DNA from: Yuukianura sp. NJ FZ-2021
Lineage: Eukaryota
Assembly (NCBI GenBank): GCA_046563655.1
Contig: CM102283.1
Location: forward strand, 1,488,001 to 1,552,000
Length of the DNA: 64,000 nucleotides
Direction of reading: 5' to 3'
Shown here piece after piece: positions 3,001-50,600 of this stretch (position 1 is its first letter; the number at the start of each line of letters is the position of its first letter). The notes below the pieces were generated by a model that did no database searches, was not told where the DNA came from, and saw nothing but the letters and a program-made list of their open reading frames with translations. The position numbers were made by a program, and so were the translations under genes.

Positions 3001-6000
3001 GAAAAGTTACACAAACAAGTTGAAAGTGAAAACCACTCAATTAGCAGACTATTCAAAAGGCTCAATTTTACTAATTTTCTGAAACTAATAGATTCAAAGA
3101 AAAAAGGAAGCTGGAAAGTAGCATATGTGTGCAAATAATTTTTTCTGAAAATAAAATTTTAATTCTCGCCTTTACAAATTCAAGATTTTTCATTTCTTCC
3201 TTCATTTCATTTCTATGTTTCCAATTCTTTGAAAAATTATTTAGGAAACTCTAATTATTTTTTGGTAGAATAAAACTGCAGCATTTAAACCAATCTCGAG
3301 GAAAAACTTATAGATCTCAAACAAATTCTGAAAAAAAAATTATAAAAAAAAATATTAGAAAAAACTTTAGTTCCCTTTTAAAAATTCAAATGCGTTGGAG
3401 TGGAGCTTTGAAGAGTTGGAAGAAGAAAACTGCATCAAAAAATACTATTCTTTCTTCACATGGGTTTATGATTCAAACCGAGCTCGTTTTTTGCTAATCA
3501 AAGTGTTTTTGGAAATGTAAGCTAGAACCTTTTTGGAGTTTGCCAGTTAATTGATTTGTATTGATCCATTGGCAGGCATTATGAATGGCCTAAGTACTTA
3601 TGTTTTATGCATTGTTTGCTTAAGTGCCATGTTCTCTCTCTACTTTTGGTGACTAAAGAACACAAAAGGATTTTTGGGGAAAGCATTTCCACAAAAGTTT
3701 GTTGACATGAAGCCCTGTTTATGTTTCGCAGCCACACTGCTCCAGCACACAAATGGAATTCTGGCGTTCACAATTTTTTGCTATGTACGATTTTATTTGC
3801 GGCGTTTGCGATTTTTGCAATTTACGATTCTATTTCTGATGTTCCCGATTTTTCCAATTTTTGGGAAAAAAAAACTTGGTCTTCTTCTGTGTCATTTATG
3901 CATTACGTCGTTGCTCCACAGAGACGAAGGAATAAGGGATACAAGATGAGCAGCGTAAGCGGAATTGCAAATTGGAGCAGGCGTATGCCAACTACACTAC
4001 TATTTTTTTTATTCTCCGAACTGTTGGGTGGATTTGAACCCACGGAAAAAACCAAACAATTCTATGCGACCTGCTTTTTCTGTTGCTGTTGAAGTCGAAG
4101 AAAGTAGGAATTTCTCAGGAGAATTAAGTTTGTATCTTTGTGCTTCCTTGGACTGGAGAGTGTGAACTGAATTTGATGACAGTGACGAGGGAGCTGTATT
4201 CACTCCACTTCAAACACATGCAGACATGAACTACGTCTGCACCTACAAAATACCCGGGTAACAAGTCCCTAGAAAACTCCCGCCTTTTTTGAATTTGACC
4301 TCCAGGACGAAAGATCCCATTTCAATTGGACTCCAGAAATGACGGAAGCCTGGAGCGGAGGGGACGGGAGCAGAAGAAGGTGAACTCCATTGTCATCCAG
4401 GGACCAAATTACTTTTACTGTTGTCAAAGGTTAGGCTAGTCTAACATAACCTAGAACAAAGCGGAAGTTCATTCATTTCCTTTTACACAGGACAAAGGTC
4501 ACCAGAGGTCACGCTCATTTTGAACAATTCGATATCTCACACGAGTTTCCGAATAGCCGAAAGTTAACAAATGACCGGAATTCCGTTTTTGGCACCCCAA
4601 CGAAAACGGTAGTACAAAAAATGAGCATTTTCCTTTCATTTTTCATTTGAAGTGACGATGACAGAATGTCGCTGTCCAGAAGAAAATATATGATCGCTTG
4701 TGTTACTTAACTTTCGTTTAGCGTCTTATCTTCTGACGAAGTGAATTAAGCTAACCCGAATAACCTGAAATGAGTTAACCTAACTAGCCTAATCTTCTCT
4801 TTCTCACATCTTGTACAAGAAGTTACAGAAGCTCTTCACATGATTATGGTCTTGATGAAAGCAAAAAGAGAAAGTGGCCATCGCTTTTCGTTCCAGTTGA
4901 CGCGAGAAAGAGGGAAGTTTGAAATGAATAGAAAGAGACAGCCCATCACTTAACTTGTTCTCATCGTCTTTAAGTGGAGGGCGAGTGAAGAAAGCGCGGG
5001 AAATTTTGAACGTCAACGTATTAAGGCATAAGGGTGGCTATCGTCCCCTGTCATAACTTTTCCGTTTTTGCTCCAAGCAAAACCTCCCGCCCGAGTTGAC
5101 TTTCACTTTTATTTGGCCCGACTTACTTTCTGTCCCTTTTGACCCTCCTCTCTCCACTTTCTCCTTCAAGGAAAAGGCAGCTATTTTGAGAATTTGTAGG
5201 GATTAAGGGCGGGAGGAAGATTAGAAAGTTATGAAGAACTTTGTTCCATCCAGTTAAGAGGAAGTGACACTCCGTCTTACACATTTCACTTGGATGTTAT
5301 TTCTAAGCATTACTCCCTACCCTACCCTAATCCTGCTAACTTCTTCAAAACACTAGTTGGAGGGAGTAACTAAAGCACAGAAGTCAGTATGACCTGTAGT
5401 AGCTTTAACATAGGCTCTAAAGTATTTGCTAGAAAAGGAATTCATATAATATAGAGCTGGAAGAAGCTAGAAAAGGAATTTATAAATATAGAGATGGAGG
5501 GAGTAACTATAACATAGGAGGCAGTTCGAGTTGGAGCTGGAGGGAATAACTATCAGGTCAATGGTTTAAACAAAAGTGGATACGACAATTCAAGCTGTAC
5601 ATTTTTAAGAATTTTTTTTGTATACATATTCCAGTTTTTAAGAAAACATTCTCAATTCAGTTTTTATTTTGCTACTGAAGGAAATGTTAGGTTTTTCAGC
5701 ATAAATTGTTATAAAGTTCACCAAAAGTTGTTTCTGAATTTGTTTTTCCTTTTGATTTTTTGAAGCAAGAAATATGGTTGTTGGTAGAATTTGTTCTAAA
5801 AGTCAAATTGAGGAGATAGGAAAAGTGAAAGGTCGACGCAAAAGAGAAAGTTATGTCTTGGGAATGTCTTTTGAAAAATCAGTATAGTTTCAGATGGAGG
5901 ATCAGTTTATGCACTTAGACAGCAGGAGGGAGAGGTTCCTTTGAAAGAAGGAAGCAATAACAGTTTTGAAGCTGGGGGAGGGAGTAACTACTGAGCATCG

Positions 6001-7405
6001 TATATTTCGGTGTATTCGGATTTCCGCTTAAAATTCTGCGGATGTTGCACACTTTTTGGTCTTTGTCGTTTTCCTCTGCTCAACGGATCAGTAGCAGTTA
6101 TGCAAATAAAAGAAAAAAGGGTTTGGCTATTCGTCGGAATAAATTGGAGATCTGTCGTTAGAATGCTGCAGAGGAATAGTGAGGTCTCTCTAGATCCGGG
6201 TTGTGGGTAGGATACAATACAATTAAGGGAGACTAAGAATAGTAGATTTAGTTAAATTATCCTAACGAACAAGGACTTGATTTGAAGAGTTTAGCAGAAC
6301 CTTCCTAACTCACTAATTCAGAAAATCACAAACTCCTGCTACTGAAGACTTTGAGTTTCTGATGCTAATCTGCAGTCCAAACTCTCCCGCCGTTTTTTGT
6401 TGTTGTTGACAAAGGAGTGACTGGTGTGCACATCAGTGACCTTCTCAGGCTACCCGCTACACTTTGAAATTGAACCGAAAATGCGGGACTTACGAATGTA
6501 ATTTTATACGGCTATATATAATACGGCTATGGAGATTTTGAAAGAAAAAATTCAGAGCTATATTACTTTATGTGCGTTTTTGTAGATTTCGAAACGGATT
6601 TTTGGCGGTTTTGGAGTGGATTTGAAATTTTCAATTTGGCTTATTCTGAAGCTGCGGTGGTTTCGGAAGTGGATTGTGGGCTAGGACGGGCTGGGCAGTT
6701 GAGCGGGAATTTGGATTTGGCGGTAAATTTAAAGCGATAAGAAAAGTGAAAGCCGGGGCGTCATATTTTTTCCGATCCGAAGTGGTTTGCAAATCTTTTC
6801 AAAGTGGATTCATTTCCATACGGATCTTGATACAGTAAAAAACAGATTTTGACGTTGGTGCAAGCTTCAAAATTTTTTGGATATGGCAGCTGTACGCATG
6901 CGGCTGCGTAGTTATGCAGGCCTAGCCTATGAAACTTTCTTGAAAATTACATTTTTCAAAAAATATTTGAAAGTTGCATGGAAAGTTTTTTCGTGGAGAG
7001 ATGAGAGATCAGCACAAATCTGGACCAGAATCACTTAAGTGCCTTAGTCACTTAAAATCTCTCCCGAATGTGCTTTTGAAAGACTTTTGAGGTCATGAAC
7101 TCTTTCAATTTACTAAGAAAAAATCCCGCAAAAAATTACAGTTTCAAAAATTCGAGGAAATGTTTCTGACGTTGTCATTCGTTAAAACATAAAATCTGAA
7201 ACCAAAAATTTTAATTCAACTTTTTTCGCCGAATCTAGCTGTGTTGTTGCCCTAACAAATTTTCAAAATTCAGAACTAAAACTGAAACAACAACTAAGCA
7301 TAAATATGCTACTATAATTAGAACAGCGTTCTGCTTGAGTTTTACATTTGAGTGCGTACATACTTTTTTCGAAATTCAAAATTTTTTGTGATTTTTTTTT
7401 CAAAA

Positions 7406-10763: not shown

Positions 10764-11487
10764 TTACATTAAAAATTTTGGTTCCTCTTTGTTCCTAGCC
10801 GCACGAACGTTTTCCTCCCACTGTTTCTGGCAACTCCTTTGCCTAAATATGGAAGACAAGTCGTTTACTGCATTGGACAAAGCTGATCCAAAAATTGGCA
10901 GTAAACTTGGCCCCACCAAATTGGTCCCCACCTTACGAGCCGTTTTATCTTGATCACTAAACGCCACGCCGAATTTGAGAAATGTAACGAAATGTTCGCA
11001 GTTGAAGTCACTCAAGTTGTAGTAAAGTTTGGACCGTGGATTGTTCAATAACAAATTAACCGTGTCACTGATCTCCGTAAAAGAATTGGGATTTGAATTG
11101 GACTTGTTATTGATTCTGGTTCTCGAGTTTCCTACATAAAGACATAGTAAGCAATTTAATTTCGGAATAGTATTATTTTTTACATTATTTTTAGTATTAT
11201 ATTTAGATTTTTTTACAATGTAACAACTACTAACCTGCAACTTCCTTCAAATTATCAATTGTAATTTTTCCAGGTACGAATTTGAGGGCATTGTTTTTGT
11301 CAAATTCACCAGACTCTGGATTAAAATGAACAATGGTGTCTTGGCTCATACTAAGAGCCCAGTGGCGATAACCGGATCGTTCAAATTCAATTAAGTCGCC
11401 TTGTATTGGGGATATTTTGTCCACGCTGGACCAATCCGGAGTTTTCAGTTCGTTAATGATTTCGGGTAACAGATTTGTAGGAAGCAT
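10764..11487 (-). CDS. LRAT/HRASLS (PLAAT) family NlpC/P60 acyltransferase/phospholipase, 2 exons
   Basis: GDLIEFER.GYRHWAL...VHF in exon 1 (11487-11235) and YNL..FNCEHFV catalytic motif in exon 2 (11131-10764). GT-AG intron 11132-11234 joins the frames. Confidence 0.85.
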
Positions 11488-12665: not shown

Positions 12666-15600
12666 TTACAGTAACTTCAGCTGTAAATTTGCCTTTTGGA
12701 TGTGTGTAATGATACTCTTGGGAAGAAGGCCAGAGTTGATAAATGTTGATGTTCCAAAGTAAAGTTCAAGTTGAGGTACAAAGGTATTGTACAGCCACAT
12801 AAAATAGTTTTTGTCTTCATTTGCAACAATTCCATCAACGTCCCAATATTTAGGTGGCATTACGGGTGATTGTGGTGAAGGTCGGTCCAAAAGTGTCGTG
12901 TAGCGATCACGCCAATGTGGAAGATTCGTTTCACGTCCAGCAATATATTCTTCCCAGGTCGGTGGTTGCATTGTGACAAACTGAATACCTGTACTTCCAT
13001 ATGATTTTTGCACTTTTTGTACTTGAATTGTGTGGCCTCCGATAGACTGGATTGATTCATCATGATCATCTTTAAAAGATTTGATCAAATCATCCCATTT
13101 CAGTTTGTCCATCAGTGGCATTTTTGTGAACAGATCAGTATCGTTTATCTGTTCATAAGTTCTGCGGAGTGCCAAAACATCAATGAATGGATCTTTTAGG
13201 CCAAGTCCACCCATTTCAAGCGGCCAGTAAATCCATGCGTCGAGTAAATCCGCTTCTTTTAAGGCTGCAAATTTACTTGTCAAAGCTCGTATAGGAGAAG
13301 TTTCCAGTGATCCAAATACTCCAGCATAAATTGAACGAAGTGAAGAAACAATTTGATCCAAATGGGCACGTCCAAAAATAAGAGCAGCTTTACCAAAATT
13401 ACGTACAAAAAATGTCATGTACTTGTTAAATATTTGAATCCATTCGAGCGTACATTCCGCCTTGGCAAGGAGACTTTTCATTTCGGCAAGAAATTTTTCA
13501 GTCGAGTTTTGATCAATTCGAAGCGTTCCTGTTGAATCTAGTACCAAATATCCCCAATGAATATTTCGTTGTGGTAAAGGAGATGGGCCTGGTACACTTG
13601 CATGTTGTTTTGGTTTTTTCGTTTTTTTTCCATGTTTCTTTGGAATTTCTGGAACTTCTGACCAAATTTTGACTGATCCACTTCGTTTCACATTGACCTT
13701 CAGCCCAACCATACTTCCAAATTCATTAAGTGTTTCCCATGTTTTGGTAACATGCGATTCCTCTTTACTCCAAAACCAAAATTCATCTGAAATTCGGTAA
13801 ATTTTCAACCCTTCACACTTTCGATTCACGATGGATTCAAGTACAAATAGCAAAGTTTCTCCAAAAAGTTTTGAAAGCGCGTGTGATGTAGGAACTCCGC
13901 GTAAGACTTCTTGCCCTGTTTCAGAATTTGTAAATTTCAAACTATGATGTAGGAAATTTTTGAAGAAATCAAGCCACTGAGTTGACACACCAAATTTTTC
14001 CATTGCTATAAGAATAGCTTCGTGTGTTAGTGAGTGACCGAATGTTTCCAATTGTGTTTGAACAAGAATCAAAGGTTTTTCTGGATACAATACTTGGTGA
14101 AGTCGAATTTCTGTGCTCAAAACATGCAAAAATGACTGCTTTGGGTCAATGTCTGGTTTTGGGCGAGGTGGAGCAGGTCGATAAGCTTTTGCTTTAAATG
14201 ATTTTGTTCGAAACTGTAAATTTTCTGTTTCATCAAAAGAAGCTGACGCCATCATTTGATAAGTTTGTCCAAAATCGTTAGTTTCTTCAGATTCAATTTG
14301 AACGAATTCGTCTGTTATTGGATTTTCTTGAGATTGCAGAGAATCAGGAAGAGCTGTTAGGAACATACTTCTGTGGTAACGATTTCGTTCGGATTCGATA
14401 GACGATTGGTTGTACGGTACACGAGTCCACATTTTAGAAGAATAAATTCGGAGAAAACGAGATTTAAAAAATGCGGCCCAACTTACTCCGATATACTGCA
14501 GAAAAAGAGCAGATAAGATATCTTCGTTTAAATATGCTCTGTATTCCCCGGCTAGCCCACGCCGCACATCAGCTGGATGAAATGTTGTTGCGTTTGGCCA
14601 ATCCCAACGATCCAAATTTATCATCCGACTTGTCAGAAGTGATGCAACTTCGGTTACCGTTTCATCATTTTGAGATAGTTCCCGAAGTGAAGATTTTTTA
14701 GTCTCAGGAAATAAATCTTCAGATAGTAGGCCTGCGATCAAATCAAGGTTCGTAAAGAAAAAAAAAACTTTTTCTACCTCAGACTGTCCAATAACTGGGG
14801 TTTTTCAGTTTTTTGCCAAAATTTTCAATAATGAAACCGGCTGAACTTCCGTTTCTATCACAATTTTTAACTTTTTTTAAACTTTTTTTTTACTCCTATG
14901 TGATTTGAAGTGTTCAAAGTTTGGGGAAAAAAATTGTTAAAATTTTTTTTGAAGCACGATTTTTGAAAACCCTGAGTTACTGGACAACCCATTGTAGGAA
15001 ATACACTTTGATTGTCAAGGAACCTTGCCTGTGATGCAGAGCTGGACATCATAGCTTGAGATACTATGGGATTCGACCTTTAAAAATTCCGATGATTCTT
15101 TGCGTATAGTTTTAACCAAGTTATCCACGTCAGTACTTTCACCAGCCGCAAAAAATTCTTTATCCAAGAATTTTTTAAATTCCGTAGGATTAAATTCATT
15201 TGAAGTCGGAGCAGTAAAAATAAGCTTTGAAATTTTAGCAATTGCTTCTTTTTTGGCTTTTGTTGTATCTTCCAATTCTGCATTACTGCGATCCAATTCT
15301 TCTTTTTCTTTTCTTCTTTCATCAACTTCAAGCCATTCTCCAATCATCGACGCAAAGTAAAATGAATATTGACATTTGCGTAGAGCGCGTTGAATTTCGA
15401 GTCGTATTTTAGTTATCCAGACAGTGAGAACATCAGATGTGAGAGAAGGATCATCATTTGAAAATTCAAGGACATCTTTTAAATTTTCAATTAAATTGGC
15501 ATCAATCGTTTCCTTGACGGGTGATGTTTTGACCGCATGGTAAAGACTTTCCAAGGTTTCACGCGCATGTTCAGAAGATGTGCCATTTGATTGCTTAAGA

Positions 15601-15709
15601 ACATCCCTGAAGTGAGCTGTCATCAAATCCTTCTGAATCCGAAGTTGCTCAAGCTTCTCCTCAGTAACTTGTTGAAGAATTGTTTTAAACGAAGCGCCAA
15701 TGCCCAGCT
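12666..15709 (-). CDS. rvt: rvt-type cellular reverse transcriptase-like protein with degenerate catalytic motifs; at least 2 exons, start codon unresolved
   Basis: Exon about 15709-15029 encodes the N-terminal coiled coil (ILQQVTEEKLEQLR). Exon 14731-12666 has RRGLAGEYRAYLNEDILSALFLQYIG, FGHSLTH, RGVPTSHALSKLFGETLLF, YRISDEFWFW, WGYLVLD and YWPLEMGGLGLKDPF, matching rvt-family signature blocks as I recall them. No adjacent gag, endonuclease or LTR. Confidence 0.8.
14744..15027. mobile_element. Non-autonomous hAT-like MITE with CAAGGTTC...GAACCTTG termini, occupying the rvt intron
   Basis: 8-bp TIR, inner TGTCCAATAAC/GTTACTGGACA inverted repeat, near-identical 8-bp flanks CCTGCGAT/CCTGTGAT, and a related copy at 48396-48619. 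Confidence 0.65.
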
Positions 15710-15750
15710 CTATAAGGAAAACAAGTTGAGATGAGCCTAAATTTCCTCTG

Positions 15751-15828
15751 TAGTTAGTTACTTGAAGTAACTAACTATGTATGGAAGACAACATGAAGTA
15801 ACTTACTTCATGTTGTCTTCCATACATA
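15751..15828. repeat. Two abutting perfect palindromes (13-bp and 26-bp arms)
   Basis: TAGTTAGTTACTT-g-AAGTAACTAACTA (15751-15777) and TATGTATGGAAGACAACATGAAGTAA-c-TTACTTCATGTTGTCTTCCATACATA (15776-15828). Confidence 0.9.
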
Positions 15829-18560
15829 ACCTTAGCAATGTTTATAACAGTGTACGTGTAGCCCGACGTTTCTGCTACAAAGATATGTGATAGAAAAAAT
15901 GTCTCACCTAGGAGCGACAGGCAGGAAAAATAAGGCAAAAATGACGAAATTTAGTCATTTTTAGAATGCGCGGACTTCCCTTTTAGATTCAGTTGTGTAG
16001 TCGCTGAAGTACACCAGCAACTGACATTAATTTGTAAGAATTTACCAACTTTAATGCGCTAGGCGTATACTTCAAACATTTAATCGATTATTGTTCAAAG
16101 CGGTATGCAAATGTCTTCCTTGCGATTCTACAGTGTCCTATTGTTTGCAGACCTTGATTTAGATGTAAATATTTTACTGTCTAAATCCTTGCCCTTGACG
16201 TGCTTGGTAATTACCACGCCAAAGGTTTCAGAAAACCTTGAATTTAAAAAATTACTTCCACCCTTGCTGGAATTTAAATTTAAAAAACACGCTAGTTGAA
16301 TTATCTTATTTTAAAAAAATTAGTTTAACAAAGTAATTAGTTTAAATATAAAAGAATTAATAAAATGTTCAAAACGTTTTATTGTATTCCAAGTAAAGCG
16401 TTAACACTAACAGCCTGATTCAATACAAACCGAAACGAAATTAATTTTGTTTGTTGCTGGAATACGAAAAATATTCCAACCCGAATAAACGTAAATGTAA
16501 AAATATTTTCACATGTTAAATGTAACTGCACCAATTAAGTGCAGCTACTATTATGAAGGGAATCGCTTACTTACAACTTCGGCCATACATAACCCCCGTC
16601 TGCGATTGGGCGTGGCGTATGATACAGTGCAAGGGACCTAAAAACGTTACGGACGGACGGACGGACAAAGTCGTGTCAATAGTCTTCTTCAGCATGTAGG
16701 AACTCGTAATTTACGAGTCGTAAACTTGCGTTTCCCTAAAGTAAAAGGCTAACGAGGCAATCCGTGGCGCCGCTTAGCGGCGGCGTTCGCACTTACAGTA
16801 TGGCAATGGCAACTCTTGTATCCGATGTACCCACGGAGTGTAACCATTGCTCTCTGTATTTTTCATGTCAACTGATGGTATATTCGTAGTGGGTGGTTAC
16901 AAACACATGATAATGCAGATTTTTTAATTTTGTAACCGTAGGATTGTATTGTAACGATTAAGTGTGGTCATGGAAAGTAGCTGGACTATCGGGTTACAAT
17001 AGATTGACGTTTAGTTCACTCCTTCACTCACGCAGAGTGTAACTGTACAAGTCAGCAAGGTTTTTTTTGTGAATGATGATCATAACAACAAATATTGACT
17101 AAAAAATTGCATCCTGTTTCGTTTTCCTTCATCTGGCGCTTCTACTAGTCAATCGTTCTTGACATTTTGACGTCTAATCGTCGTCCGTCCATCTGAACTA
17201 TCTGTAAGGTAAATACCTGTCTTGAACTGGATTAAAGGCGCCTGACTCGCTGACTCAGAAAGAAGGTGTTCCTCATTCGTCTATGAATCGAATGTGTCTG
17301 GAAGAGATTTTGACTTCCATTTTCCTTTATTTTCAGTTGCATTAGCGGAGGATATTGCATACCTGACGAACCATGAACCCACAACCGGCGAACGTCAAGG
17401 AACTGAAGGTTGGGAGATTCTACAAATGTCAAGTCGGACAAGTAACGAGAGCTGGACAGCTGTTCATGCTTCTACATACTTCGGCAACTGAGGACATTGT
17501 AAGTTTACACCTATGATATGTTTATCCAAGATAAACTTTATAAACGTAATGAACGTGTTCGGGTTATCCCGTGATGATGTTGTAATGAACTTTGCTCATC
17601 GTTTTCAACTCCCTAGGATATGGAAATTCGAACCTGGACTCGCTTCTACTTGAATGAACCGAATATGAGTCGGAAGTTCAACCTTGATTGTTCACTTCGG
17701 CGCATGGTTGTGGTTGTTATTCGAGCTTCCTCAACCGTCTACCGGGGGCTACTGGTTAGCTTAGACATTGAATCACGAAAGGCTGTTCTGGATTGTGTCG
17801 ATTTGGGTGAAATAAGACAAGTTTCAATTGATCACTTGTATGAAGCAACGCCCGAAGTTGTAGCAACCAAGTGGAAGGTAATCTACGTTATTATTTTTAA
17901 GTCTGTCAACTGATGTATAGCTTATTGGATATGTTAAGTCAAACTAGGCTGGCTACCTTAGAAAGATGTAAGATGTAACTAAACCATTTTCTATTTTCAG
18001 ACGGTTCCCTGTGTGCTGGATGGATTGGCAATGTTTTTAGGAACCCACTTCATGGAGAAAGGACTTCAGCACTGCAGCTTTATTCAAACTTCTAAACAAC
18101 TTCGAATGACAGTGAAAGGAAAACTGGACTCTCATTTCGTCATTGTTTTGGAGTGCTTCTCGAATCCAAAGTCAGTTAAGAACGTTAACACTATGATCAA
18201 CGAGTTCCTCCAAGGTCCTCTTTTGGAAGGACTTAAGAACAACGAGGTTAGTTTCCGTAGTCAATTCTCAGTTTTTAGCTGCTACTCATAGTACTAACTT
18301 AAGCTTCATAACTATTTAGTTGCCATCGTAAAGTGAACTTACTTGTGTGTTTGAATTTAGAACTCCAGCGTCATGGTTTCTGAAGTTCGCGGAGATGGAA
18401 TGATATATTACTCTCAAGTTGCTGGCGTTCAAGATGACACGGCCATTACACTTATGGAGTCGTTTCTCAGTCGAGTCAGTTATCGCGTAATGCGACGTCA
18501 ACTGCCAGCAGTAACCCCTGCAACAGTGGACCTAAATGAAGTGTACTTGGCTCCATATGA

Positions 18561-18809
18561 TGCGGCAGACCGGGGATTCCGCTGTTGCTGAACTGACCTC
18601 TGACCTCGTTGGAGTGATGCACTACTCAATAAATTGACCTCAACTACTTGCTGGACTTGGTGTCCAGTGGTAATCTGCTTAGGAGATGTTCTTTATTTAA
18701 CATCCAGAGAAAGACTGACAAGCATCTACCTAATCTACCTTACGTTAGATTGTGTGTTACACCTGTTGTCCAGTGGGGGTGGGTGTGGGTGGTGTACCGT
18801 CCCGCTACA
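18561..18809 (-). repeat. 3' LTR
   Basis: Identical by inspection to 27526-27774; TG...CA termini; AATAAA on the element strand. Confidence 0.97.
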
Positions 18810-20900
18810 CATTCCACCCGCAAGAAGGGGCCTCCCGGGGGGTGGGGTGGGGGTCTTCTCCTGGAGTGGGGGGAGGGGTCCTTGGATTGGTCCTCGGTCA
18901 TCCTTCCGCTGCCTGGGAGTGGTGACGTGTCTGCACTGCTGGCGCTTGTATGGATGATGATGTGGTGCTTGAGTGGTATTGTGGTGCTTGTTATCTGGTT
19001 TTTCTTTGTCGTTTTTGTGACGTTTTTGCCGATACTCTTTGACTTTGTTGGCAATCTTTTGTTTTTTCCAATTGATGAAGTATGGATCGGTCGCCATAAT
19101 TTTGATTTTTCTTTCTTCGCATTCTTTGCGAAATTGAGTGTCCTTTCTGTCGTGAAATGGACAATTTGACTTTTGGTGACCTTTCAACCAACATCCGAAG
19201 CAAACGTTGGTTGGTTGATTTGGGTTTTGAACGATTTCTTGTAAATCGTTTTGGATGGTGACGAGAATATTTTCTCGCTGAACCGGAATTTCTGGGATTT
19301 TTGTCGGAACTGTAATTTCTACAGTTCTTTCTGAATTTGATGTGATCTCTGGAACTGGTTCTGGACCGGTTGAAGTTTCAGCATCAATTTGAATGTTGTT
19401 TGTAGAATTTGGAGTAATTGAAATTGGTTCATCAACTTCCATTGGTTGAATTTGTTGAGTCAAATTTGTTTCTGTGGTGGATGGAGCATTTTGTTGAAGT
19501 AAATCATTCGAAAATGATTCGATGTCTCCGTCCGCTGTGATTTCAATTTCTGGATTTTCTGGACGCGTAGTTATTGTCACGTTTCCGTTGCAGAATTCAA
19601 CGAGTGAATCAGTTGATTCTTCCGAGGAATGTCTCGTTCGATTCGATTGGCGGTTAGGAACGACGACTACAACGGATTTGATTTTTGGTGACGGAGGTTC
19701 TGGTATTTCCCATGGATTTGAATTTGCGTCATTTTGTCTTTTTTGTTGTTCTGTGAAGATTTGTAGGGTCTTCTGTGACATCCGCCTGGCAAATACACTA
19801 CCATCCAAGGATTTTGGTGGTAATTCAATTAGATCTTCTTTGGTTTTGTAATTGTTTGGAGCTTCGACCATCGCTATGAGTTTCTCTTTTGGACAGACAC
19901 ACTGTCCAGGAAGATCATGAAATCTTGCGATGTCTTCTCTCAGTATGAAAATTTCTTTGAGGATGTGATTTTGAATTCCATCCAAGTTGGCGGTTTTTGC
20001 GATGTCATCGAGTTTTTGAAATTTTGGTTGACCAATATTTGGAGTATGTTTTGGGTAACGAAAAGTGACTGATGTCCATTCATTTTCATATAACTTGAAA
20101 CATTTTCCTCCATGATCCATCTTGATTTTGTTCCATGCTCGGATGAGCAAATGGGAGTCAGATCTTGCGTATTGGATCAAATCTGCATGGAGTGGTCTGT
20201 TTCGAAAGTCAGCGGCTCTTAGATCTTTGTTGGTTGGTTCAACATTTGGAATGAGAGTGGAAATTACTTTCCAGTAATTTTCTTGTCGTTGACGTTCTGG
20301 TTCGTCTGGAGGTTGTGGGAACTTGTAATAGGCTCGCTGTAGGTCAATGATTCCGACGGGGAATATTTTGTAAAACAAGTTCAGTTTTTTGACATCTTCT
20401 TTAGGGTCGAATCCGATTTTGATAATGTTAGGATTTTCAAAGATTGTTTTCAGTTCTTGTATTTTTTCGGAAAATTGAAAAGGGCAGATCACGTAATCTT
20501 TTTCTTGTGTGGAGATTTGAATAAGTGTCGGGTAAGTATGACCAAAGTAAGCTCGATCTGTTCCGTCAGAAAATTCAATGTCGAATCCAATTTCTTCTTG
20601 AATTTTGAGGTCATCCAGCATCTTTTTGAATTCGGAATATTTTCCAGGGATGATAACTGGAGTCGTAGCTCTGTCATCCTTGATGCTTTGACCAGTTTTG
20701 TATGTGGACATTGATTCTGTTATGTGAAATTTGGTCATTTCGGCAAGTTTCGGATTTTGCTGTATGTCGTAGCCGTCCTTGTTTCTTTGGATACAGTAAT
20801 TTCGGAATCCTTGGAATTTCGGATTGTAGAATGGTCTGGTTTTGGCTTTTCCATATTTCTTTTCCATTTCCGCTTTCAGTTTTAGCCATGGAGTTGCCAT
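18735..20900 (-). CDS. Retrotransposon ORF3: Rrp6/EXOSC10/RNase D-like DEDDy 3'-5' exonuclease + HRDC + disordered linker + CCHC zinc knuckle (721 aa)
   Basis: ExoI IGFDIEF, LIQISTQEKDY, IFENPNIIKI, ExoII FDPKEDV, DFRNRPL, ExoIII YARSDSHLL. HRDC-like ILREDIARFHDLPGQCVCP. Knuckle CFGCWLKGHQKSNC. The stop lies inside the 3' LTR. Confidence 0.88.
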   Translation of the reverse strand: MATPWLKLKAEMEKKYGKAKTRPFYNPKFQGFRNYCIQRNKDGYDIQQNPKLAEMTKFHITESMSTYKTGQSIKDDRATTPVIIPGKYSEFKKMLDDLKIQEEIGFDIEFSDGTDRAYFGHTYPTLIQISTQEKDYVICPFQFSEKIQELKTIFENPNIIKIGFDPKEDVKKLNLFYKIFPVGIIDLQRAYYKFPQPPDEPERQRQENYWKVISTLIPNVEPTNKDLRAADFRNRPLHADLIQYARSDSHLLIRAWNKIKMDHGGKCFKLYENEWTSVTFRYPKHTPNIGQPKFQKLDDIAKTANLDGIQNHILKEIFILREDIARFHDLPGQCVCPKEKLIAMVEAPNNYKTKEDLIELPPKSLDGSVFARRMSQKTLQIFTEQQKRQNDANSNPWEIPEPPSPKIKSVVVVVPNRQSNRTRHSSEESTDSLVEFCNGNVTITTRPENPEIEITADGDIESFSNDLLQQNAPSTTETNLTQQIQPMEVDEPISITPNSTNNIQIDAETSTGPEPVPEITSNSERTVEITVPTKIPEIPVQRENILVTIQNDLQEIVQNPNQPTNVCFGCWLKGHQKSNCPFHDRKDTQFRKECEERKIKIMATDPYFINWKKQKIANKVKEYRQKRHKNDKEKPDNKHHNTTQAPHHHPYKRQQCRHVTTPRQRKDDRGPIQGPLPPLQEKTPTPPPGRPLLAGGMCSGTVHHPHPPPLDNRCNTQSNVR

Positions 20901-21005
20901 CTGAAATTGAGGAATTTAAAATTAATTAATCCTGGATTGTGATTTCTCACATTGATATGGTATTTGGAATTTAGAAATTTTGTGTTTTTGTTTCCGGCTT
21001 CGCGC

Positions 21006-24000
21006 TTAGCGGTGATAACCTGCGAGCGTGCGATAATTGACTCTTTGTTTTTGTCTAAGTCTTGGTAAGTTTTCAGATTCATCGTTCGACGGAACTGAAT
21101 CATTTTTCTTTTGATTAAATTTTTGTTTTATTTTTCGGACAAAATATTGTTTAATTTGGGAAACATGCCGTCTCCCTACATGAGAATTGTCATCAATTCT
21201 TACTATTTCGTAAGTAATTGGAGTGGCTTTACTGCCAATTTTGTATGGACCTTCCCATTTATGGGATAATTTTTGTGCAATCCCTTCATCCTTACTGGAT
21301 AGGATATGCGTTTTAATGAGGACGAAGTCTCCTTCATTAAATGTCACATCACGGTGACTTTTGTTATAATACATTCGGTTTTTCTCATGGGCTATTTCCA
21401 TGTTTGCTCTCACGTACTCAATTAATTCTTTAAGTTCATTTGGAACTTTTTGAGCGTGGTTTAAGTCAACCTGAGTTGGACTTTGTTGTAAATTTCTGTC
21501 AAATGGCAATGGAATTTGCCTTCCCAGATTCAATAATGCTGGTGTGACTTTTGTTGTTTCATTTACGACTGTGCGTAATGCTAGAGCGAATTTTTGAATG
21601 TTTTGGTCCCATTTGTGATGACTTTCTTCGATGTATGCTTGAATCATTGTTTTGATGCTTCTATTGGTTCTCTCAGATTGATTGGCTTGAGGATGGTACT
21701 CAGCAATCATTTTATGTTTGATTTTCCATTTTTCACATAAATCTGCGATTATGTTGGAAGTAAATTGAGGTCCATGGTCTGAGATTATTGTGTGTGGAGA
21801 TCCGAATCTGCAGAAGATTTGATCTTCCAGTATTTCTTCAGTTTTCTTTGCAGTTGCCGCTGTCATGGGAAAAAGTTCAACCCATTTTGACAGTTCGTCT
21901 AGAACGACGAGTAAATATTTGCTTTGTTTTCCGCCCGCACTTGTTGGAAATGGACCTTGATAATCAACATGTATTGTTCCGAATACTTCGGATGGCGGTT
22001 TTGCAAATCCTAATTCTCCATAGGGTTTCCTATTTGAGATTTTTACTTTTTGGCATTTGTCACAAGTTTTGACATATTCTGCAATTTCTCTGTTCATATT
22101 GTTCCAATAGCATCTTTGTTTGATTCTTTCTTGAGTTTTTGTTCTCCCGAAGTGTCCGGCTTCTGGGGAGTCATGGAATATTTCCATTATTTTTGTTTTC
22201 ATAGTTTCTGGAATTACTGGTACCATGGTTTTTTCTTGATTTTTGTTAGGATCCTTGTCATTTTTGGGTAATTTTGAGTTGACTGGCTGTGTCTGAGGTT
22301 CATGACTCCTCTCTTCAGTTGTCTTCTCTTGATTTTGATTTGGTTTTTGTGCCGTAATAACGGTCTTTGGATGGCTGCAATCTGGTTTGAAACAAATTGT
22401 TTCATGACAAATTTTTGATTTGACTTGAGTCAATTTTGGTGAAGTTGCAGTCCTTCCTTTGAATGGTTTGATTTTTCGGAACAAAACGTTTCTGTCGAAG
22501 ACATAATTACTCGTAATGCTTGGCCGAACATTCTTCGTAACTTTGAGTTCGTTTATGATTTTTTGAGTTTGTGGATCTTTTCGTTGTTCCGTTGAAATAT
22601 CTTGTAATGATGGAGTACAGTAGACAAGTAGAAATGTTGGTAATAAAATGTTGTCTCTGTCTTGGAGCATGTCTGGATCGTTTTGTGTTTCTGGAAGACT
22701 GGCTCTTGAGAGTGCGTCTGCAACTACGTTTTCGGATCCTTTTCTGAATCTGATGGTTGCGTTCCAGGATGTGATCTCGATTGCCCATTTTGTAAGTTTG
22801 GCTTTTTTGTTTTTCATGGAATTTAAGTAACTGACTGCCTTGTTGTCAGTTTCGATTATGAAGGGGTGTCCTTCAATAAATTCTCTGAATTTGTCGTATG
22901 CAAAGATTATGGCATAAAGCTCTTTCTCATGAATATGAGCGCTTCGTTCTGACTTTTTGAGTGATTTGCTTGCAAACATGATTGGTCTTTCTTTGCCGTC
23001 AATTTCTTGGACAAGAACTGCTCCGAGTCCATTTTCTGAGGCATCACATTGCATGATTATTGGTTTTGAGTAATCGATTGTTTTTAGAATGACATCTTCT
23101 GCCATTGCTCTTTTGATTTCTTGAAATGCATTTTCTTGTTCTTGACCCCATCGCCATTTTACGTTCTTTCTGAGAAGATGATGTAATGGTTCGGCTTTTG
23201 AACTAAAGTTTTTGATGAAGGTGGCGTACCATGCGCACATTCCATGGAATCGTAAAATGTCTTGTTTGCATTGTGGAGTTGGAAATTCCATTATGGCCTT
23301 GACTTTTGAAGGTTGTTTGGTAATTCCATCTTGGCCAACAACATGACCAATGTAATGGACTTCAGTTTGTGCCCAAACTGATTTGATTCTATTAATTGTT
23401 AATTTCGCTTCTTTGAGTCTTTCAAGTGCTTTTTCAAGGTCAATGTAATGTTGTTCCAAGGTTGGTGAGTAAATCAGGATGTCATCAACGAAAATTTTGA
23501 TGAAAACGTCAATGTAATCTTGGAAAACGATTCTCATCAATGAAGTAAATGTTTTTGGTGAATTTTTCAATCCCATCGGCATCACTAGGAATTCGTAATG
23601 GCCGTCTTGTGTGATAAATGCGGTTTTCTCAATGCTGTTCTCGTGCATTGGAATTTGCCAAAATCCTGAGTTCATGTCGAGGACAGTGTACCAGTAGTTT
23701 GGCGGGATTGTTCGCAGGATGGAGTTGCAATTGTCCATTGGAGCTGCGTTTTTCTTCATACTTGCGTTAAGTTTGATGTAATTGATGCAGAGCCTGTACT
23801 TGTCTGAGTTTTTCTTTTTCTCTAACACCACTGGTGCTGAGTAAGGGGATCTGGACTGTCTCACCATTCCTTTTTGAATTAATTGCTCGATTTCTTGGTT
23901 GAGAACGTTTCTTAAGTTTGGAGCATATTTGTAAGGTCGGAGTTGAATTGGTCCGCCTTCTGTTTCTATTTCATGTCTGGTAAGATCTGTTCTGCCATTC

Positions 24001-24566
24001 AGATTGTCGTCTCTGGCGACTTCTGGGAATTTTTGAATTATTTCTAGAATTCTAGCTTCTTTTTTGTCTAATGGAGTTTTTCCATTTGGTTGTTCGTAAG
24101 TAAGGCTGAACAGAATAGCATTCTGTCGATTTTTGAATGAGAATATTGTTGGAAGTTTGTCTTCTGGTTTTGACTTAAACCAAAACTTTTCTCCTGAGAC
24201 ATCGAGAATGATTTCATGTTTCTTCATGACGTCTTTGCCAATGATAAGCGGAAATGGAAGGGTTTCCATTACGTATGCATTGGTGATTATGAGTTTGTCC
24301 AGGATCTTGAATTGGAGTCGAACTGATCCAATTGGTTGAATTTTTTGATTGTTTGCAATAATTAAAGTGAGATTATTGCTAGAGTTGAAATTCTTTTGAA
24401 TTTTCTTGGCTACTCTTTTGTGGATTAGAGTATAATCGCTTCCAGTGTCGAAAATGGCTTCGATTTCTGGTGTTTTTGATAAGATCAATGATGTTGCACC
24501 TTGGGATTTTTGAAATTTGAGGATTGGGAGAAGATAAGATGGTGCTGGGAGCTTATCTTCCCTCAA
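21006..24566 (-). CDS. pol: Pol polyprotein (aspartic protease, RT, RNase H, integrase)
   Basis: Protease FDTGS; RT VLDMNSGFWQI, MPMGLKNSP, FVDD; RNase H CDAS, EKELYA, TDNKA; integrase HDSPEAGH..CDKC, HVDY, SDHG, SERTN. No in-frame stops. Confidence 0.97.
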   Translation of the reverse strand: MREDKLPAPSYLLPILKFQKSQGATSLILSKTPEIEAIFDTGSDYTLIHKRVAKKIQKNFNSSNNLTLIIANNQKIQPIGSVRLQFKILDKLIITNAYVMETLPFPLIIGKDVMKKHEIILDVSGEKFWFKSKPEDKLPTIFSFKNRQNAILFSLTYEQPNGKTPLDKKEARILEIIQKFPEVARDDNLNGRTDLTRHEIETEGGPIQLRPYKYAPNLRNVLNQEIEQLIQKGMVRQSRSPYSAPVVLEKKKNSDKYRLCINYIKLNASMKKNAAPMDNCNSILRTIPPNYWYTVLDMNSGFWQIPMHENSIEKTAFITQDGHYEFLVMPMGLKNSPKTFTSLMRIVFQDYIDVFIKIFVDDILIYSPTLEQHYIDLEKALERLKEAKLTINRIKSVWAQTEVHYIGHVVGQDGITKQPSKVKAIMEFPTPQCKQDILRFHGMCAWYATFIKNFSSKAEPLHHLLRKNVKWRWGQEQENAFQEIKRAMAEDVILKTIDYSKPIIMQCDASENGLGAVLVQEIDGKERPIMFASKSLKKSERSAHIHEKELYAIIFAYDKFREFIEGHPFIIETDNKAVSYLNSMKNKKAKLTKWAIEITSWNATIRFRKGSENVVADALSRASLPETQNDPDMLQDRDNILLPTFLLVYCTPSLQDISTEQRKDPQTQKIINELKVTKNVRPSITSNYVFDRNVLFRKIKPFKGRTATSPKLTQVKSKICHETICFKPDCSHPKTVITAQKPNQNQEKTTEERSHEPQTQPVNSKLPKNDKDPNKNQEKTMVPVIPETMKTKIMEIFHDSPEAGHFGRTKTQERIKQRCYWNNMNREIAEYVKTCDKCQKVKISNRKPYGELGFAKPPSEVFGTIHVDYQGPFPTSAGGKQSKYLLVVLDELSKWVELFPMTAATAKKTEEILEDQIFCRFGSPHTIISDHGPQFTSNIIADLCEKWKIKHKMIAEYHPQANQSERTNRSIKTMIQAYIEESHHKWDQNIQKFALALRTVVNETTKVTPALLNLGRQIPLPFDRNLQQSPTQVDLNHAQKVPNELKELIEYVRANMEIAHEKNRMYYNKSHRDVTFNEGDFVLIKTHILSSKDEGIAQKLSHKWEGPYKIGSKATPITYEIVRIDDNSHVGRRHVSQIKQYFVRKIKQKFNQKKNDSVPSNDESENLPRLRQKQRVNYRTLAGYHR

Positions 24567-27774: not shown

Positions 27775-29537
27775 ATGAGGACGGTGTACTTTACCGTGCA
27801 AAAATTCTTGAGAAGGACGAAAAACGCGTCGAGGTAGAATACATTGACTACGGGAACCGGGAAGTTCTTCCATACACGGCTGTGTTTCAGGCTTCACTTG
27901 TGGACGTTACAATGGCATCATTCCCACCATTGGTACGTGGAATCCCTTATTATTCAATTCTCATAGTCATAACTTTTTTCTTTAAAAAAGTGAACTTGTT
28001 TTGTTTCAGGCTAAAAAAGCGTATCTCCGCTGGATCCAGGAGTTCAATGACCTGGAGAAGGCCCAGGACATTCTTACTTCCAAAACATGGAAAGTTGAGG
28101 TACGCAAATCGTTCAGAAACGGTTGTCCAATGGTTTGTCTCTTTGATCCGGCTGACTCAAGCGTCGTCAACAAGAAGTTGATTCTGGACGGCTTTGCCAA
28201 AAAGTCAGTTACTTCAAACTGAACCACCAATTTTTGAAAACATTGAACCATGTAGCTGCACAAGTTTTTGTTTTTTTTTTTTCTCAGTTGTTTCTTTGTT
28301 TATCTTTTTCGTTGTTGATAGATTACTCACTTGTGCACTACAGGCTATTTTTCAACTTCTTACCCAATTTTAACAAATTGGTTGTAATGTTTACATAAAA
28401 CATATAATAAAATATGTATTTAAAACTACAATAATTGTGTGAAGTAATTACTTAAGTTTGATTTAGGAACTTCGTCCGATGAAGAAGTTTAGTACTTTCA
28501 CCGTTTCACCTCCAACATTGAATTATTTCTCGCCATTTTTTAGTGGAGTAGGGAATGTCATAGGAGAAAGTGGCGGGAAAGTTAATTTAATTTTGGCTAC
28601 TCACTTTCCCAACCTCGAACTCCTTTCTGTCCTAAACTTGTCTCTGTCACTCCCAAGTCCCTGCTGAACTAATCTAAAAGTTAAGAGTTCATCTTCCTCA
28701 TTACTTCAACTTAACTTTAGGTAGCATAACCTACGAAATTTTGAACAAACCTAACCCTTGAAGTTTAAAATTTCAACCTTACTGGCCTCAAATATAAGCT
28801 GAAGTTGCACAATTTACGTTAGGTTAACGTAACCGAAAGATTTCGTAGATTGAGTAGATTTCATAATGAATTTCTCATACCTAGTAGAAAAGGAAAGTTA
28901 GGCAATAATGTTGAAAATAGAAAATTGAATTTCTTTTGTTTCTACTTTCTCCTTCTGGGCCGCACAACCAATAAAACTTTGCCCAATAATCTCTTCATCC
29001 CTTGCCCTTGCACAACTTTTGCACAACTTTGAACTTATACTGCCACTGCTCCAAATTAAATCTCCGCAGGCACTTCTGCCATGAAAAGTCTAACTTTTTT
29101 ATTTCCTTCCTCCGAAGTATTTCAATTAAAATTTCAAATTTAAATTTGTTTTTGTTTTTTAACACTCCACTAACCCCTGCCCTCCTCACTGACTCTTGAG
29201 CATTGACATTTTTCTTAAATAGAGCAGAAAGAAAGGAAAAACTTAAAAAAGTTGTTCCTTTTCGAAACACAATAGCTGCCTATGATACCGGCCTGTTCAA
29301 CTTTTTAATTAAATTTTCCTCCGAAGTTTTTTTTTTCGAGAACAACGAAACTAACCTGATGTCTAGCAAAGAAGTTTAGTCCGGAAGACTGTTTCAAAAT
29401 TCCGATTTTTTTTAGGAATAATAATAATTCAAAACGTGTGGATGGTATTTACAATTAACTTTCTAACAACTTTACATAAATTGTTATTATTATTTTTTAC
29501 AATTATTATTGATCTCTGATATAGTGAACTATAGGGC

Positions 29538-47600: not shown

Positions 47601-50600
47601 GGTCACAAGCACAAGGTTCACAGCCTTTTCCACTGGCAATTTTCCAGTGATTTTCTTTACAAGAGTTGCACTGCACTCCTTCCACGTTGGGCAAACAGAA
47701 GCACTGACCTGTCACCCTGTCACAAGTCGTTTTGTTTGGATCCGTGCCCAACATGTTACAAATGCATCCTAAAAATTACAAAATTTTCAAAATTTATGAA
47801 TTCACACTTTTCAAAATTCGACAATAACTGACGAGGAGAGGCTTTTTTGCAAAATAAATTATGTGACTAGTCACAAAAATTTCTTATAATTAAAGAAAAA
47901 TTTTGACACTAGTTTTGTTTCAAAGTGCGGAAAAAACGTTGTTATAGCCGTGGTTCGAATCCACATCGTGTTAACTTTTTTTCGCACTTCGAAACAAAAC
48001 TGGTGTCGAATTTTTTTTTAATTATAGGAAATTTTGGTGACTAGTCGAAAAATTTATTTTGAAAAATGTTTGAAAACCTCTCCTCGTGAGTTTTAAAAAA
48101 TTCTTACGTTGACATGTTTGTAAAACTGCGTCACCAAAGTAGCCGTCACGACATCTCTCACAGTTGAATCCATCAGTTTGAAATAAACACTGCAAACATT
48201 GACCTGACTTGCTGTCACAGTTGCCAGGTCGTGACATGTCAACATTGTTGTTACATGCACACAACGAACAGGCGCCGCCAGGAACCTCCGGATTCCCAAA
48301 GTAGTTTTCAGCACAGAGGTCACAACGTGCTCCTAGAAAATTTGGAAAAATAAAAATATTCAATATGTTTTCAAAAGCTGAGACAAAAGTTTTTCCAAGG
48401 TTCGTAGACAAGAAAAAACTTTTTCTACACGAGGTTGTCCAATAACGCGTAGTTTTAAAATTTGTTTGAAAGTAGGAAATCTACTTTTCAATGATAATTT
48501 TTTTGCGTGTATTGTGAATGGGATTGGTGTTAGAAGTTGTTTGAAGCAGTAATTTTGAAAACTCTGAATTATTGGACAACCTGTTGTAGGAAATACAATT
48601 CGGTTGTCAAAGAACCTTGTTTTTTTTATAAGCTTACCGCCATAACCTTCATTGCAATTACAAATGACGTCATTCGTGTGACGGTCCAATCCGCATCGAG
48701 ATGCAAACGAATGCTTTGGCACTGTGTCGTTTGTGCCTGGACATGGACAAGCTCTGCACGGAATGTCTACACCAATACGCGGATCTCCGTAAAATCCTTC
48801 CCCGCATCTAAAAATTCACTTTTCGAAATGTACATCCAAAATTCAAAATTTGAAAATTCAAAAATGTTTTGTATAAACCTATCACAGTAGGTTCCAGTGG
48901 CGTTGTTTTTGCAGCCAATGCATGTTCCAGTGTGATCGTCGCAGATATCAGCATGTCCGTTGCAAGAACACGGTTTGCAGTTCGGGAATCCCCAGAACCC
49001 TGGTTGGCACTTGTCACACTGCGGACCAAAAATATTGGCAACACACCGACATTGTCCTGATTCTTGACAAAAGTTATCCAGCGATCCAATTGGGTTACAC
49101 TCACAAGCTAAAACAAAAAATTTCAAGAAAAATTCAACTTTTCAAGAAAATTTTCTTAAGATTTTTTTTTTGAATTTTTGAAAAATAACTTACGTTTGCA
49201 CCCCTCCGGGCCAAATCCAGAAGTGCCAGGAGCACACCGACTGCAATCTCTTCCAACTACATTGGGTTTGCACTGACACTGACCTCCCAGAGTGTCACAA
49301 ATGGCACTTGTTGACCCCGTGGGACTACACCCACATTCCCTTGCTCCGTTGTACACAAAGTATCCAGAAGAAGTCAAAGTGGGTTTGCACTGTGGTGATT
49401 CATGCTTGATCACACTGAGCGCAGACTCTGCACAGCGGTAGTGGTCAAATTCACGCTTTCGATAGTCTGCCACTGGATCGCCGTGGAAAAATGGAAGATC
49501 ACCGGTTCTTGGTATAAGAGCAATCTGTTTCAAAAAGTAAAAGATTTTCAAAATTAAAAAAAAAATTTGTTCAAAAAATTTATGAGTTTCTTTTTAAAGT
49601 TTGAACTTACAGAGTCAATTAAAATTGGATTTGATGGACCGGGGTCTGACTCTTTCACGTCCAGTCGGACAGTGTACTTGGTTGAATTGTCAAGACAAAG
49701 TGGTGGGTGCATGATAGCGTGTCTCTCTTCTGTTATGAAAAGTTTCAAAAAAAAAAGAATCTTTTTTAGATTTTGAGAAGTCTAAAAAACTTTTTTTTTG
49801 AAAAAGTTTGCAATTACCGCTGCGTAGAAGCAATCTCGTGGCAGAGCTGGGAGGAATCGTGTTGGCGCATGGGCCGTTTGGATCCGGCGGATTGTCTTGC
49901 GTCACCAAAACTTCAATTTGGTGCCATCCTGGTTGCTATACACAAATTTCATATTAAAAACTAAAAATTTGAAACTTTTCGGTTCATGTTTTTGAAAATT
50001 TAGGTCTCACTTGTGGTTCATATCTGATTTCCAAATCGTATTCCATTGTTGTTGTAACATCGTCAATGACAAATTCCAAGTAGGAGTCGTCAAAGGCCCT
50101 TACAAATCCTGGACCGCTCCATGGTGACCCTCTTCCACCGCCATACGGTTCTCGAATTGCAACTTGACAATTCTGAAATTAAAAATTTCAAATTTTAGAA
50201 AAGTTTACTTTTATAAATTTTTGTAAAAAAGCAAACTTACAGGACTCGTCTTTGCAGCTTCTGCTTCAAACGTGTAAAAGTCCAGGGATGGAGCAAAAAA
50301 TGCTTGTTCAGGCGTACTGCAATTTCGACCGGTTACATGTGGACGACATCTGAAAAAATGAAAATAATTTGTACAAAATGTTCCACAATTTCATAAAAAG
50401 TTGCGTTCTTTTCTTTTCTCTGACTTTGATCATTTAAGAAAAAAACATACCTGCACTTCCCACTAAAAACGTCGCAATTGTTATCCAATGCACCTCCGAC
50501 GTCACAGTCACATTTTTTACATCCCTCTGGATCTTCTGATAAACCTGAAACAACAAAGCTAAGTTGAAAAGTGAAAGGTCACGTGGAATATAAAGGTCAA

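Follow-up and report, generated by a model that had tools for sequence, protein, structure and literature searches.

In right-hand polymerases as a whole, the motif A aspartate serves as a metal ligand. To our knowledge, rvt genes are the sole class of reverse transcriptase (RT) besides telomerase to act as an ordinary host gene, and we know of no function assigned to them. They were reportedly described by Gladyshev and Arkhipova in 2011 as RT-related cellular genes, and two papers on these genes (PNAS 2011; Curr Genet 2018) are said to report multimerization of RVT and a protein-primed, Mn-dependent polymerization. Section 27 of PMC9226505 places rvt among stand-alone RT-related host genes, as UG37 in the UG/Abi classification, and ascribes to RVT the formation of multimers, the use of Mn2+, a preference for nucleoside triphosphates and protein priming; a large variable loop (2a) of rvt proteins is described in one part of PMC5718144. 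Here we analyze an rvt gene in a 64,000-nucleotide stretch of contig CM102283.1 (positions 1,488,001 to 1,552,000) from Yuukianura sp. NJ FZ-2021, assembly GCA_046563655.1; this whole stretch is called the window below. In the window protein the motif A Asp is replaced by Gln, while the rest of the RT core is preserved. Judging from sequence comparisons, we think the chances evenly balanced that this is a working rvt protein with a remodelled metal site.

The locus at 12666-15701 is a member of the rvt family with two predicted exons and 912 codons, encoded on the minus strand. A 691-codon open reading frame (ORF, 14741-12666), whose product we refer to as P0001, holds the interval from motif A to motif C (13770-14066); residues are numbered in the full-length protein, in which codon 1 is 15701-15699, unless P0001 is named. 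The Pfam RVT_1 match is weak (P0001 residues 196-352, E 4.2e-4, 20.5 bits versus a gathering score of 29.6). A homology search retrieved 51 proteins at E ≤ 1e-3, with best E values of 1e-196 to 1e-223 at 45-51% identity and 97-99% query cover; 790 cluster representatives were found at E ≤ 1e-3, and 269 of those at E ≤ 1e-30. The matched homologs, of ~850-1000 residues, have the rvt gene layout. In the protein atlas, the neighbors of the window protein are RT-domain clusters of Ascomycota and Chloroflexota, and its RT core is far nearer to those of other rvt proteins than to retroelement RTs.

The domain plan is also that of the family. A conserved N-terminal domain and a long C-terminal extension enclose the RT core: exon 1 corresponds to residues 1-~230 of the relatives, and the C-terminal 300 residues align to them over their whole length. 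Loop 2a, the large variable loop that separates RT motifs 2 and 3, is represented by a low-complexity stretch of variable length before motif A (columns 500-700 of alignment A1), in which residues 142-196 of P0001 have a predicted local distance difference test score (pLDDT) below 50. The rvt signatures RGVPxSHxLSxLFGE, R-x-x-D-[DE]-FWFW, PLPQ..I.WG and WPLE.GGLGL are all present. What is missing is the canonical combination of a motif A Asp with a motif C Asp-Asp, in place of which the window protein has Gln451 and Asp540-Glu541. These residues do not define the family in practice, as 29 of 145 representatives are also without the motif A Asp. The rvt gene appears to stand alone among ordinary host genes and outside any retroelement; the nearest retroelement, a separate one of Ty3/gypsy type, starts 3 kb away. 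It is also the only rvt copy in the window: the active paralog that the initial annotation had envisaged was not encountered within these 64 kb, which hold one locus and no second rvt. A literature search, supplements excluded, found no description of arthropod rvt genes, which does not prove that none exists, and an Rfam search of the window for a partner RNA gave 0 matches.

Catalytic positions were assigned by searching a profile of 26 rvt proteins against PDB sequences. The rvt segment 'sdlesfgpslpH' aligns residue for residue with motif A 'DIDLEKFFDTVNH' of the group II intron RTs 5hhj and 5hhl, and 'RisDdfWfW' aligns with 'RYADD' of DRT9 (9ioa), of the group II maturase 6me0 and of 5hhj. 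It follows from this alignment to solved RTs that Gln451 takes the place of the canonical motif A Asp, and that the Asp-Asp of motif C corresponds to Asp540-Glu541. The initial annotation had noted a motif A without its usual Asp and a motif C that reads YRISDEFWFW; both are read directly from the sequence, and the profile alignment places them where it had put them. The ORF was also modeled with AlphaFold2 from an alignment of 26 sequences (mean pLDDT 72.5, predicted template modeling score 0.74). Foldseek matched this model to R2, LINE-1 ORF2p, group II intron, DRT2, DRT9 and telomerase RTs, with E values of 6e-9 to 1e-5. In the model, motif A ends a β-strand (P0001 224-231) and motif C forms the usual hairpin (315-317, 320-325). 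The RT fold is confirmed at the level of this prediction, as are the strand and hairpin positions of the two motifs that the initial annotation had singled out.

The window protein and 12 relatives, among them sequences of Bradysia, Pseudolycoriella and Folsomia, form a clade with 99% support. Motif C in these 12 relatives is DE in ten, EE in one and DQ in one; it is DD in the two nearest outgroups (P0054, P0057) and in the Umbelopsis group. On this distribution, the Asp-to-Glu change in motif C is conservative and ancestral to the animal rvt clade, and is not specific to the window gene. At motif A, the other members of the animal clade retain the Asp, which is present in 16 of the 16 closest relatives that cover the column (QADLES and similar). 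As far as the alignment goes, the change from Asp to Gln is specific to the window lineage and is not noise; a Pro-to-His change in FGPS (His457) is likewise confined to that lineage. Two residues downstream of the motif A Asp (position +2, if the Asp is position 0), all 16 close relatives carry Asp or Glu, and the window protein retains Glu453. The initial annotation had counted two of three Asp residues as changed and had deduced a non-catalytic protein. That deduction is not supported in this form: DE is clade-wide and conservative, and Gln451 leaves the conserved Glu453 in place.

Another key observation to emerge from these comparisons is that plasticity of motif A is family-wide. Among 145 representatives (50% clustering), position 0 is Asp in 116 and another residue in 29; 19 of these 29 have Asp or Glu at +2, and 23 have it at +2 or +3. 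We also compiled an enlarged set, which a second search enriched for one fungal subclade and in which 297 of 305 members have all columns filled. The motif A Asp is absent from 162 of the 297, and 136 of those 162 have an acid at +2. The initial annotation had held that other acidic residues at the catalytic positions would speak against a dead enzyme, and this is partly what is seen, Glu453 being at +2 as in these 136 members. Gln occurs at position 0 in 13 fungal proteins, 12 of which have Asp or Glu at +2, and an intermediate form with Glu at both positions exists (Botrytis RSEFESFGPS). Motif C in the 297 members is DD in 238, DN in 32 and DE in 16; its first Asp is near-invariant and its second is often Asn or Glu. 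The 32 DN forms are found in a Fusarium-rich group. Judging from the tree, the motif A change in the window protein is independent of the fungal subclade, since the window protein lies in an animal clade with Asp-bearing members.

Bearing these distributions in mind, we hypothesize that the protein still works, with a remodelled metal site. Its motif C DE goes back to the common ancestor of the animal rvt members, and its motif A Asp has given way to Gln in the window lineage. The likely path is GAY > GAA > CAA, by way of Glu: CAA is one step from GAA, which makes Asp>Glu>Gln the shortest path. Glu453, which is retained and common to the close relatives, would take over metal binding, giving a site built from Asp540, Glu541 and Glu453. 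Such a protein would still be RVT-like, that is, a multimeric, Mn-dependent and protein-primed nucleotide polymerase, and it would be an independent recurrence of the 'non-Asp-x-Asp/Glu' motif A long in use in a large subclade of fungal rvt proteins.

Conservation of the protein bears on this hypothesis. Alignment A1 has 50 invariant columns, and the window protein keeps every one. Among the 43 columns that are at least 90% conserved it departs from the consensus at one, and among the 94 that are at least 80% conserved, at 13; Asp-bearing relatives do so at 11-13 of the same 94. Its end branch in the tree measures 0.71, versus 0.30-0.64 for the sister-clade paths.

Selection was assessed from variants in public DNA runs, and not from ortholog dN/dS, because the nearest proteins are ~50% identical and their synonymous sites would be saturated. 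Five public runs contain the stretch, all of them DNA, and three were compared: X1 and X2 are one sample, and X5 carries another organism label, at ~95% identity. The counts rest on the best-supported 40 of 178 differences, all 40 of them in the coding sequence (CDS): 27 are synonymous and 13 non-synonymous. A random CDS change would be synonymous in 22% of cases (binomial p ~1e-9, or ~1e-6 at a generous 30%), and from this synonymous excess it follows that the rvt gene is under purifying selection. Among the variants listed, the RT core (codons 423-592) has 17 synonymous and 4 non-synonymous, and X5 alone has 10 and 3. A divergent block of the variable linker, beside an in-frame 3-base insertion, holds 9 of the 40 (7 of them non-synonymous). 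Ten indels are listed, one of which is coding and in frame; none of the ten shifts the CDS frame.

Near the altered residue itself, the codons of Thr450 and His457 carry synonymous variants. Gln451 has no listed variant in X1/X2, and X5 has no cover over 13904-14137, which includes motif A; contigs at least 80% alike showed haplotypes, with no listed change at codon 451. The initial annotation had proposed a domesticated gene kept by selection in a non-catalytic role. Its first half stands, in that the gene is selected despite a changed catalytic residue; the non-catalytic role is not established by these data. Of the marks of a pseudo-enzyme, upkeep by purifying selection is seen, and the loss of ligands extends to one canonical ligand, with Glu453 and both motif C acids present.

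The proteins of the relatives are ~220 residues longer at the N-terminus than the 691-codon ORF, and tblastn of residues 1-~230 of P0003, P0006 and P0012 places the additional part at 15701-15027, with 42-50% identity. When 14732-15028 is removed the frame is restored, giving a joined CDS of 2739 nt whose one stop is at its end and a junction that matches the relatives ungapped (DVQLCIT-G-LLSEDLF versus DVQCCIK-G-LSSEELL). The unspliced reading stops after ...CITGKVP, 4 codons into a miniature inverted-repeat transposable element (MITE) that makes up the body of the intervening segment. The initial annotation's statement that the ORF stays intact is partly right: the 691-codon ORF is open, and the 912 codons predicted after splicing contain no stop or frameshift; that ORF is exon 2 only, however, the MITE stops the frame, and the expected ATG is ATT.

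Copies of the MITE in the window are ~225-285 bp long, with imperfect terminal inverted repeats (TIRs) of ~60 nt (CAAGGTTC...GAACCTTG), and the source reads contain this family in high copy number. Summed contig depth is ~130-6800 over 14723-14839 and 14957-15073, versus ~8-47 over the exons, and dozens of contigs end at 15027 and at 14743/14744. A second copy in the window has the same orientation relative to transcription. No immediate target-site duplications of 2-4 bp were seen at the MITE ends in either window copy. A near-repeat does flank the MITE in the rvt gene: ATCACAGG (15035-15028) and ATCGCAGG (14738-14731) are identical at 7 of 8 positions, the ATCGCAGG copy sits 5 nt beyond the aligned MITE end, and the pair may be an 8-bp target duplication. 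Excision of the MITE with one copy of the repeat would explain the restored frame, whether or not the segment is spliced; PMC11282704 describes the like for introns derived from transposons.

Three points lead us to predict that the MITE-derived segment is spliced out: a favorable donor context, the selective constraint on exon 2, and an X5 contig that runs into the MITE. A pyrimidine tract lies ahead of the acceptor, and the donor CAG/GCAAGG (the slash marks the splice site) agrees with the consensus at 7 of 9 positions. The X5 contig extends from exon 2 across the acceptor and into 11 nt of the MITE end, which hints weakly at an insertion older than the split. Another donor, GCAAG/GTTCCT, was considered and rejected, as no acceptor then restores the conserved frame. 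At the 5' end, an ATT codon (context GGC ATT G) stands where the relatives have their start Met (MSASF...), and no ATG follows until codon 27. Ahead of that ATG, 16-18 of 26 codons still encode the same residue as in the relatives. Initiation is predicted at the ATT or upstream of it. Over 15707-17200, a search for an ATG with a phase-compatible donor that agrees with at least 7 of 9 consensus positions gave a single candidate mini-exon. This mini-exon falls inside a near-perfect palindrome at 15775-15830 (minus strand), 75-130 nt ahead of the rvt coding start, whose arms are ~24 nt long (…TATGTATGGAAGACAACATGAAGTAA/GTTACTTCATGTTGTCTTCCATACATA…); another, small palindrome comes next.

A more ambitious proposal joins these strands: that rvt polymerases can shift their motif A metal ligand two residues downstream, that the window gene did so via Glu and independently of the fungal subclade, and that the MITE now serves as a GC-AG spliceosomal intron. 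We put it forward tentatively, as possible and on balance doubtful.

Several points weigh against a working enzyme with a remodelled site. We know of no experiment that shows an acid at +2 replacing the motif A Asp. Ten members of the enlarged set have an acid at none of positions 0, +2 and +3, so the family may tolerate real catalytic loss. The parallel with fungi is partial: the fungal Q-x-D/E proteins have an altered FG loop too (LY/WN), whereas the window protein keeps FG and has Pro>His. The RVT of Neurospora, which has been studied biochemically, is not among the best 120 of the 597 proteins matched by the Sordariales protein P0046. In a Tajima relative-rate test with P0054 as outgroup, the window protein shows some excess, with 62-76 unique changes versus 31-47 (p 2e-5 to 0.11). 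The Umbelopsis outgroup gives 47-63 versus 41-53, with little or no excess, and the RT core (162 columns) shows no acceleration, with 10-13 unique changes in the window protein versus 10-18 in the comparators. The base of the variant counts in 40 of 178 differences, the ATT at the conserved ATG, and an intervening segment that consists of a transposon copy and begins with a GC donor belong on the same side of the scale.

One alternative is a gene that is starting to decay, with a MITE in a coding exon, ATG turned to ATT and the catalytic Asp lost, its ORFs still open since the damage is recent. Such decay would account for the MITE sequence that occupies 284 of the 297 nt between the ORFs and halts the unspliced frame after 4 codons, for the GC donor in place of GT and for the ATT at the conserved Met; moreover, the full-length proteins of relatives that come from short contigs are single uninterrupted ORFs, a hint that the interruption is lineage-specific. 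It sits poorly with a predominance of synonymous changes in both exons among haplotype and X5 variants, with 912 codons of 37% GC DNA that lack a stop or frameshift, and with 26 pre-ATG codons that still resemble those of the relatives. The donor match and pyrimidine tract, and the hint from X5 that the insertion predates the split, point the same way, and Asp>Gln is two base changes, not a single fresh mutation. We consider recent decay improbable.

A true pseudo-enzyme, in which Asp>Gln abolishes metal binding and the protein has a non-catalytic role (for example in binding nucleic acids or nucleotides, as a scaffold or within a multimer, possibly with an active paralog elsewhere), is a more serious contender, though in our estimation still rather unlikely. 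In its favor, Gln451 occupies the position of the canonical metal ligand, a change seen in none of the 16 close relatives; a second change (Pro>His) falls within the motif A loop, the second motif C acid is Glu, not Asp, and the gene is nevertheless under purifying selection. Section 27 of PMC9226505 has rvt proteins multimerize through an N-terminal coiled coil, so a dead subunit could act in a complex, and ten family members are without an acid at 0, +2 or +3. Long catalytic loss should, however, relax the nucleotide-binding residues, and the RT core is as conserved as that of Asp-bearing relatives, with all 50 A1 invariant columns kept and no rise in RT-core rate. Glu453 and Asp540 are both kept, the form with a non-Asp residue and an acid at +2 is common and long-lived in fungi, and the window holds no paralog. 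We retain the remodelled, working metal site as our preferred reading, at the even balance given above.

Table 1. Features of the rvt gene and of the associated transposon family in the window. A slash marks a predicted splice site.
Feature	Position	Strand	Description
Candidate upstream mini-exon	15807..15827	-	ATG TAT GGA AGA CAA CAT GAA / GTAAGT; could give start codon via AG at 15709-15708
Exon 1	15029..15701	-	Codons 1-224 and first base of codon 225, N-terminal domain; tblastn
Intervening segment, 297 nt	14732..15028	-	GC..AG ends, CAG/GCAAGG ... GATCGCAG/GC
MITE copy, 284 bp of the 297-nt segment	14744..15027	-	Imperfect TIRs of ~60 nt
Exon 2	12666..14731	-	Remainder of codon 225 through the stop; holds variable linker, RT core and C-terminal extension
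RT motif A region, LVQTQLETFGHSL (codons 447-459)	14028..14066	-	L-V-Q-T-Q-L-E-T-F-G-H-S-L
Motif A residues	Gln451 (CAA) 14054-14052; Glu453 14048-14046; His457 14036-14034	-	
RT motif C, YRISDEFWFW (codons 536-545)	13770..13799	-	Asp540 13787-13785, Glu541 13784-13782
Second copy, same MITE family	48396..48619	-	In GT..AG intron of laminin-EGF-like gene

The genes around rvt are intron-bearing animal genes (LRAT-like, biotin-protein ligase and laminin-like), with the Ty3/gypsy element nearby. By identity the biotin ligase fragment comes closest to Orchesella cincta (53%), followed by Folsomia candida (47%) and then insects, which points to a springtail-like host. Directly downstream of rvt is an LRAT/H-rev107-like gene (10764-11487, minus strand) in two ORFs, with PF04970 in both and an NCEHF motif. 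The Ty3/gypsy-type retrotransposon (18735-26203, minus strand) encodes gag with a zinc knuckle and pol with protease, RT, RNase H and integrase; its region has a strong AT skew of -0.23 to -0.31 and an extra 726-codon ORF with a 3'-5' exonuclease domain (PF01612, E 1.5e-20), an unusual accessory domain. An ORF at 29429-30164 (minus strand), Gly/His-rich with a signal-like start and tandem GGGWEGGNHHP repeats, may encode a secreted repeat protein. Two paralogous ORFs of ~165-170 codons lie 3 kb apart on the plus strand (59708-60226 and 62854-63354; …ENENSGSSKLSF.LWPEPCSNKA.VSQIF…), and the one of the two that was searched has no Pfam match.

The tree also bears on the origin of the gene. The animal rvt clade adjoins unnamed sequences and Umbelopsis (Mucoromycota), and Folsomia is intermixed with the rvt proteins of fungus gnats (Bradysia and Pseudolycoriella; P0006, P0008, P0012) at short distances. 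This pattern suggests horizontal transfer of rvt into and among soil arthropods. Together with the putative MITE-built intron, the animal rvt clade provides leads on gene transfer and intron gain in these animals.

If the motif A part of the more ambitious proposal is true, relocation of the ligand would be a form of active-site plasticity undescribed for other reverse transcriptases. An active window protein would, with the fungal Q/V-x-D/E forms, indicate that the 'invariant' motif A Asp is replaceable in rvt, and RT competence would have to be read differently. If, on the other hand, the protein is inactive yet conserved, it would be a natural separation-of-function allele and an aid to finding a non-catalytic role for RVT.

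How does the locus compare with described systems? For a non-catalytic protein, the paradigm would be the RT-like domain of Prp8, presented in part of PMC5718144 as a non-catalytic RT-derived core; Prp8 is highly diverged, whereas the window protein keeps nearly all of the RT-core residues that are conserved in active-looking relatives. With regard to gene structure, the window case is like the introner elements and transposon-derived introns covered in part of PMC11282704 in having a short TIR-bearing element within a coding exon, its body a member of a repeated TIR element family. Again as in transposon-derived introns treated there, the first base of the MITE completes the GC donor, and the acceptor lies in the flanking near-repeat. 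Unlike introner families, one such case was seen, the other window copy lying within an ordinary intron; the putative 8-bp duplication, which contains one mismatch, is 5 nt off the element end, and splicing is predicted. Compared with other rvt genes, that of the window has Gln for the motif A Asp and a CDS interrupted by a MITE-derived segment. Its closest named relatives are those of fungus gnats and Folsomia, and its motif C is DE like that of the animal clade. The closest counterpart of its motif A is in the fungal (Pezizomycotina) rvt subclade, in which the canonical Asp is likewise absent, Asp or Glu is at +2 and the first motif C Asp is kept, as in P0037 of Caloplaca (RSQVDSLYPS) and P0046 of Apodospora (HSSFEDWNPL); that subclade mostly keeps DD in motif C, whereas the window protein has DE.

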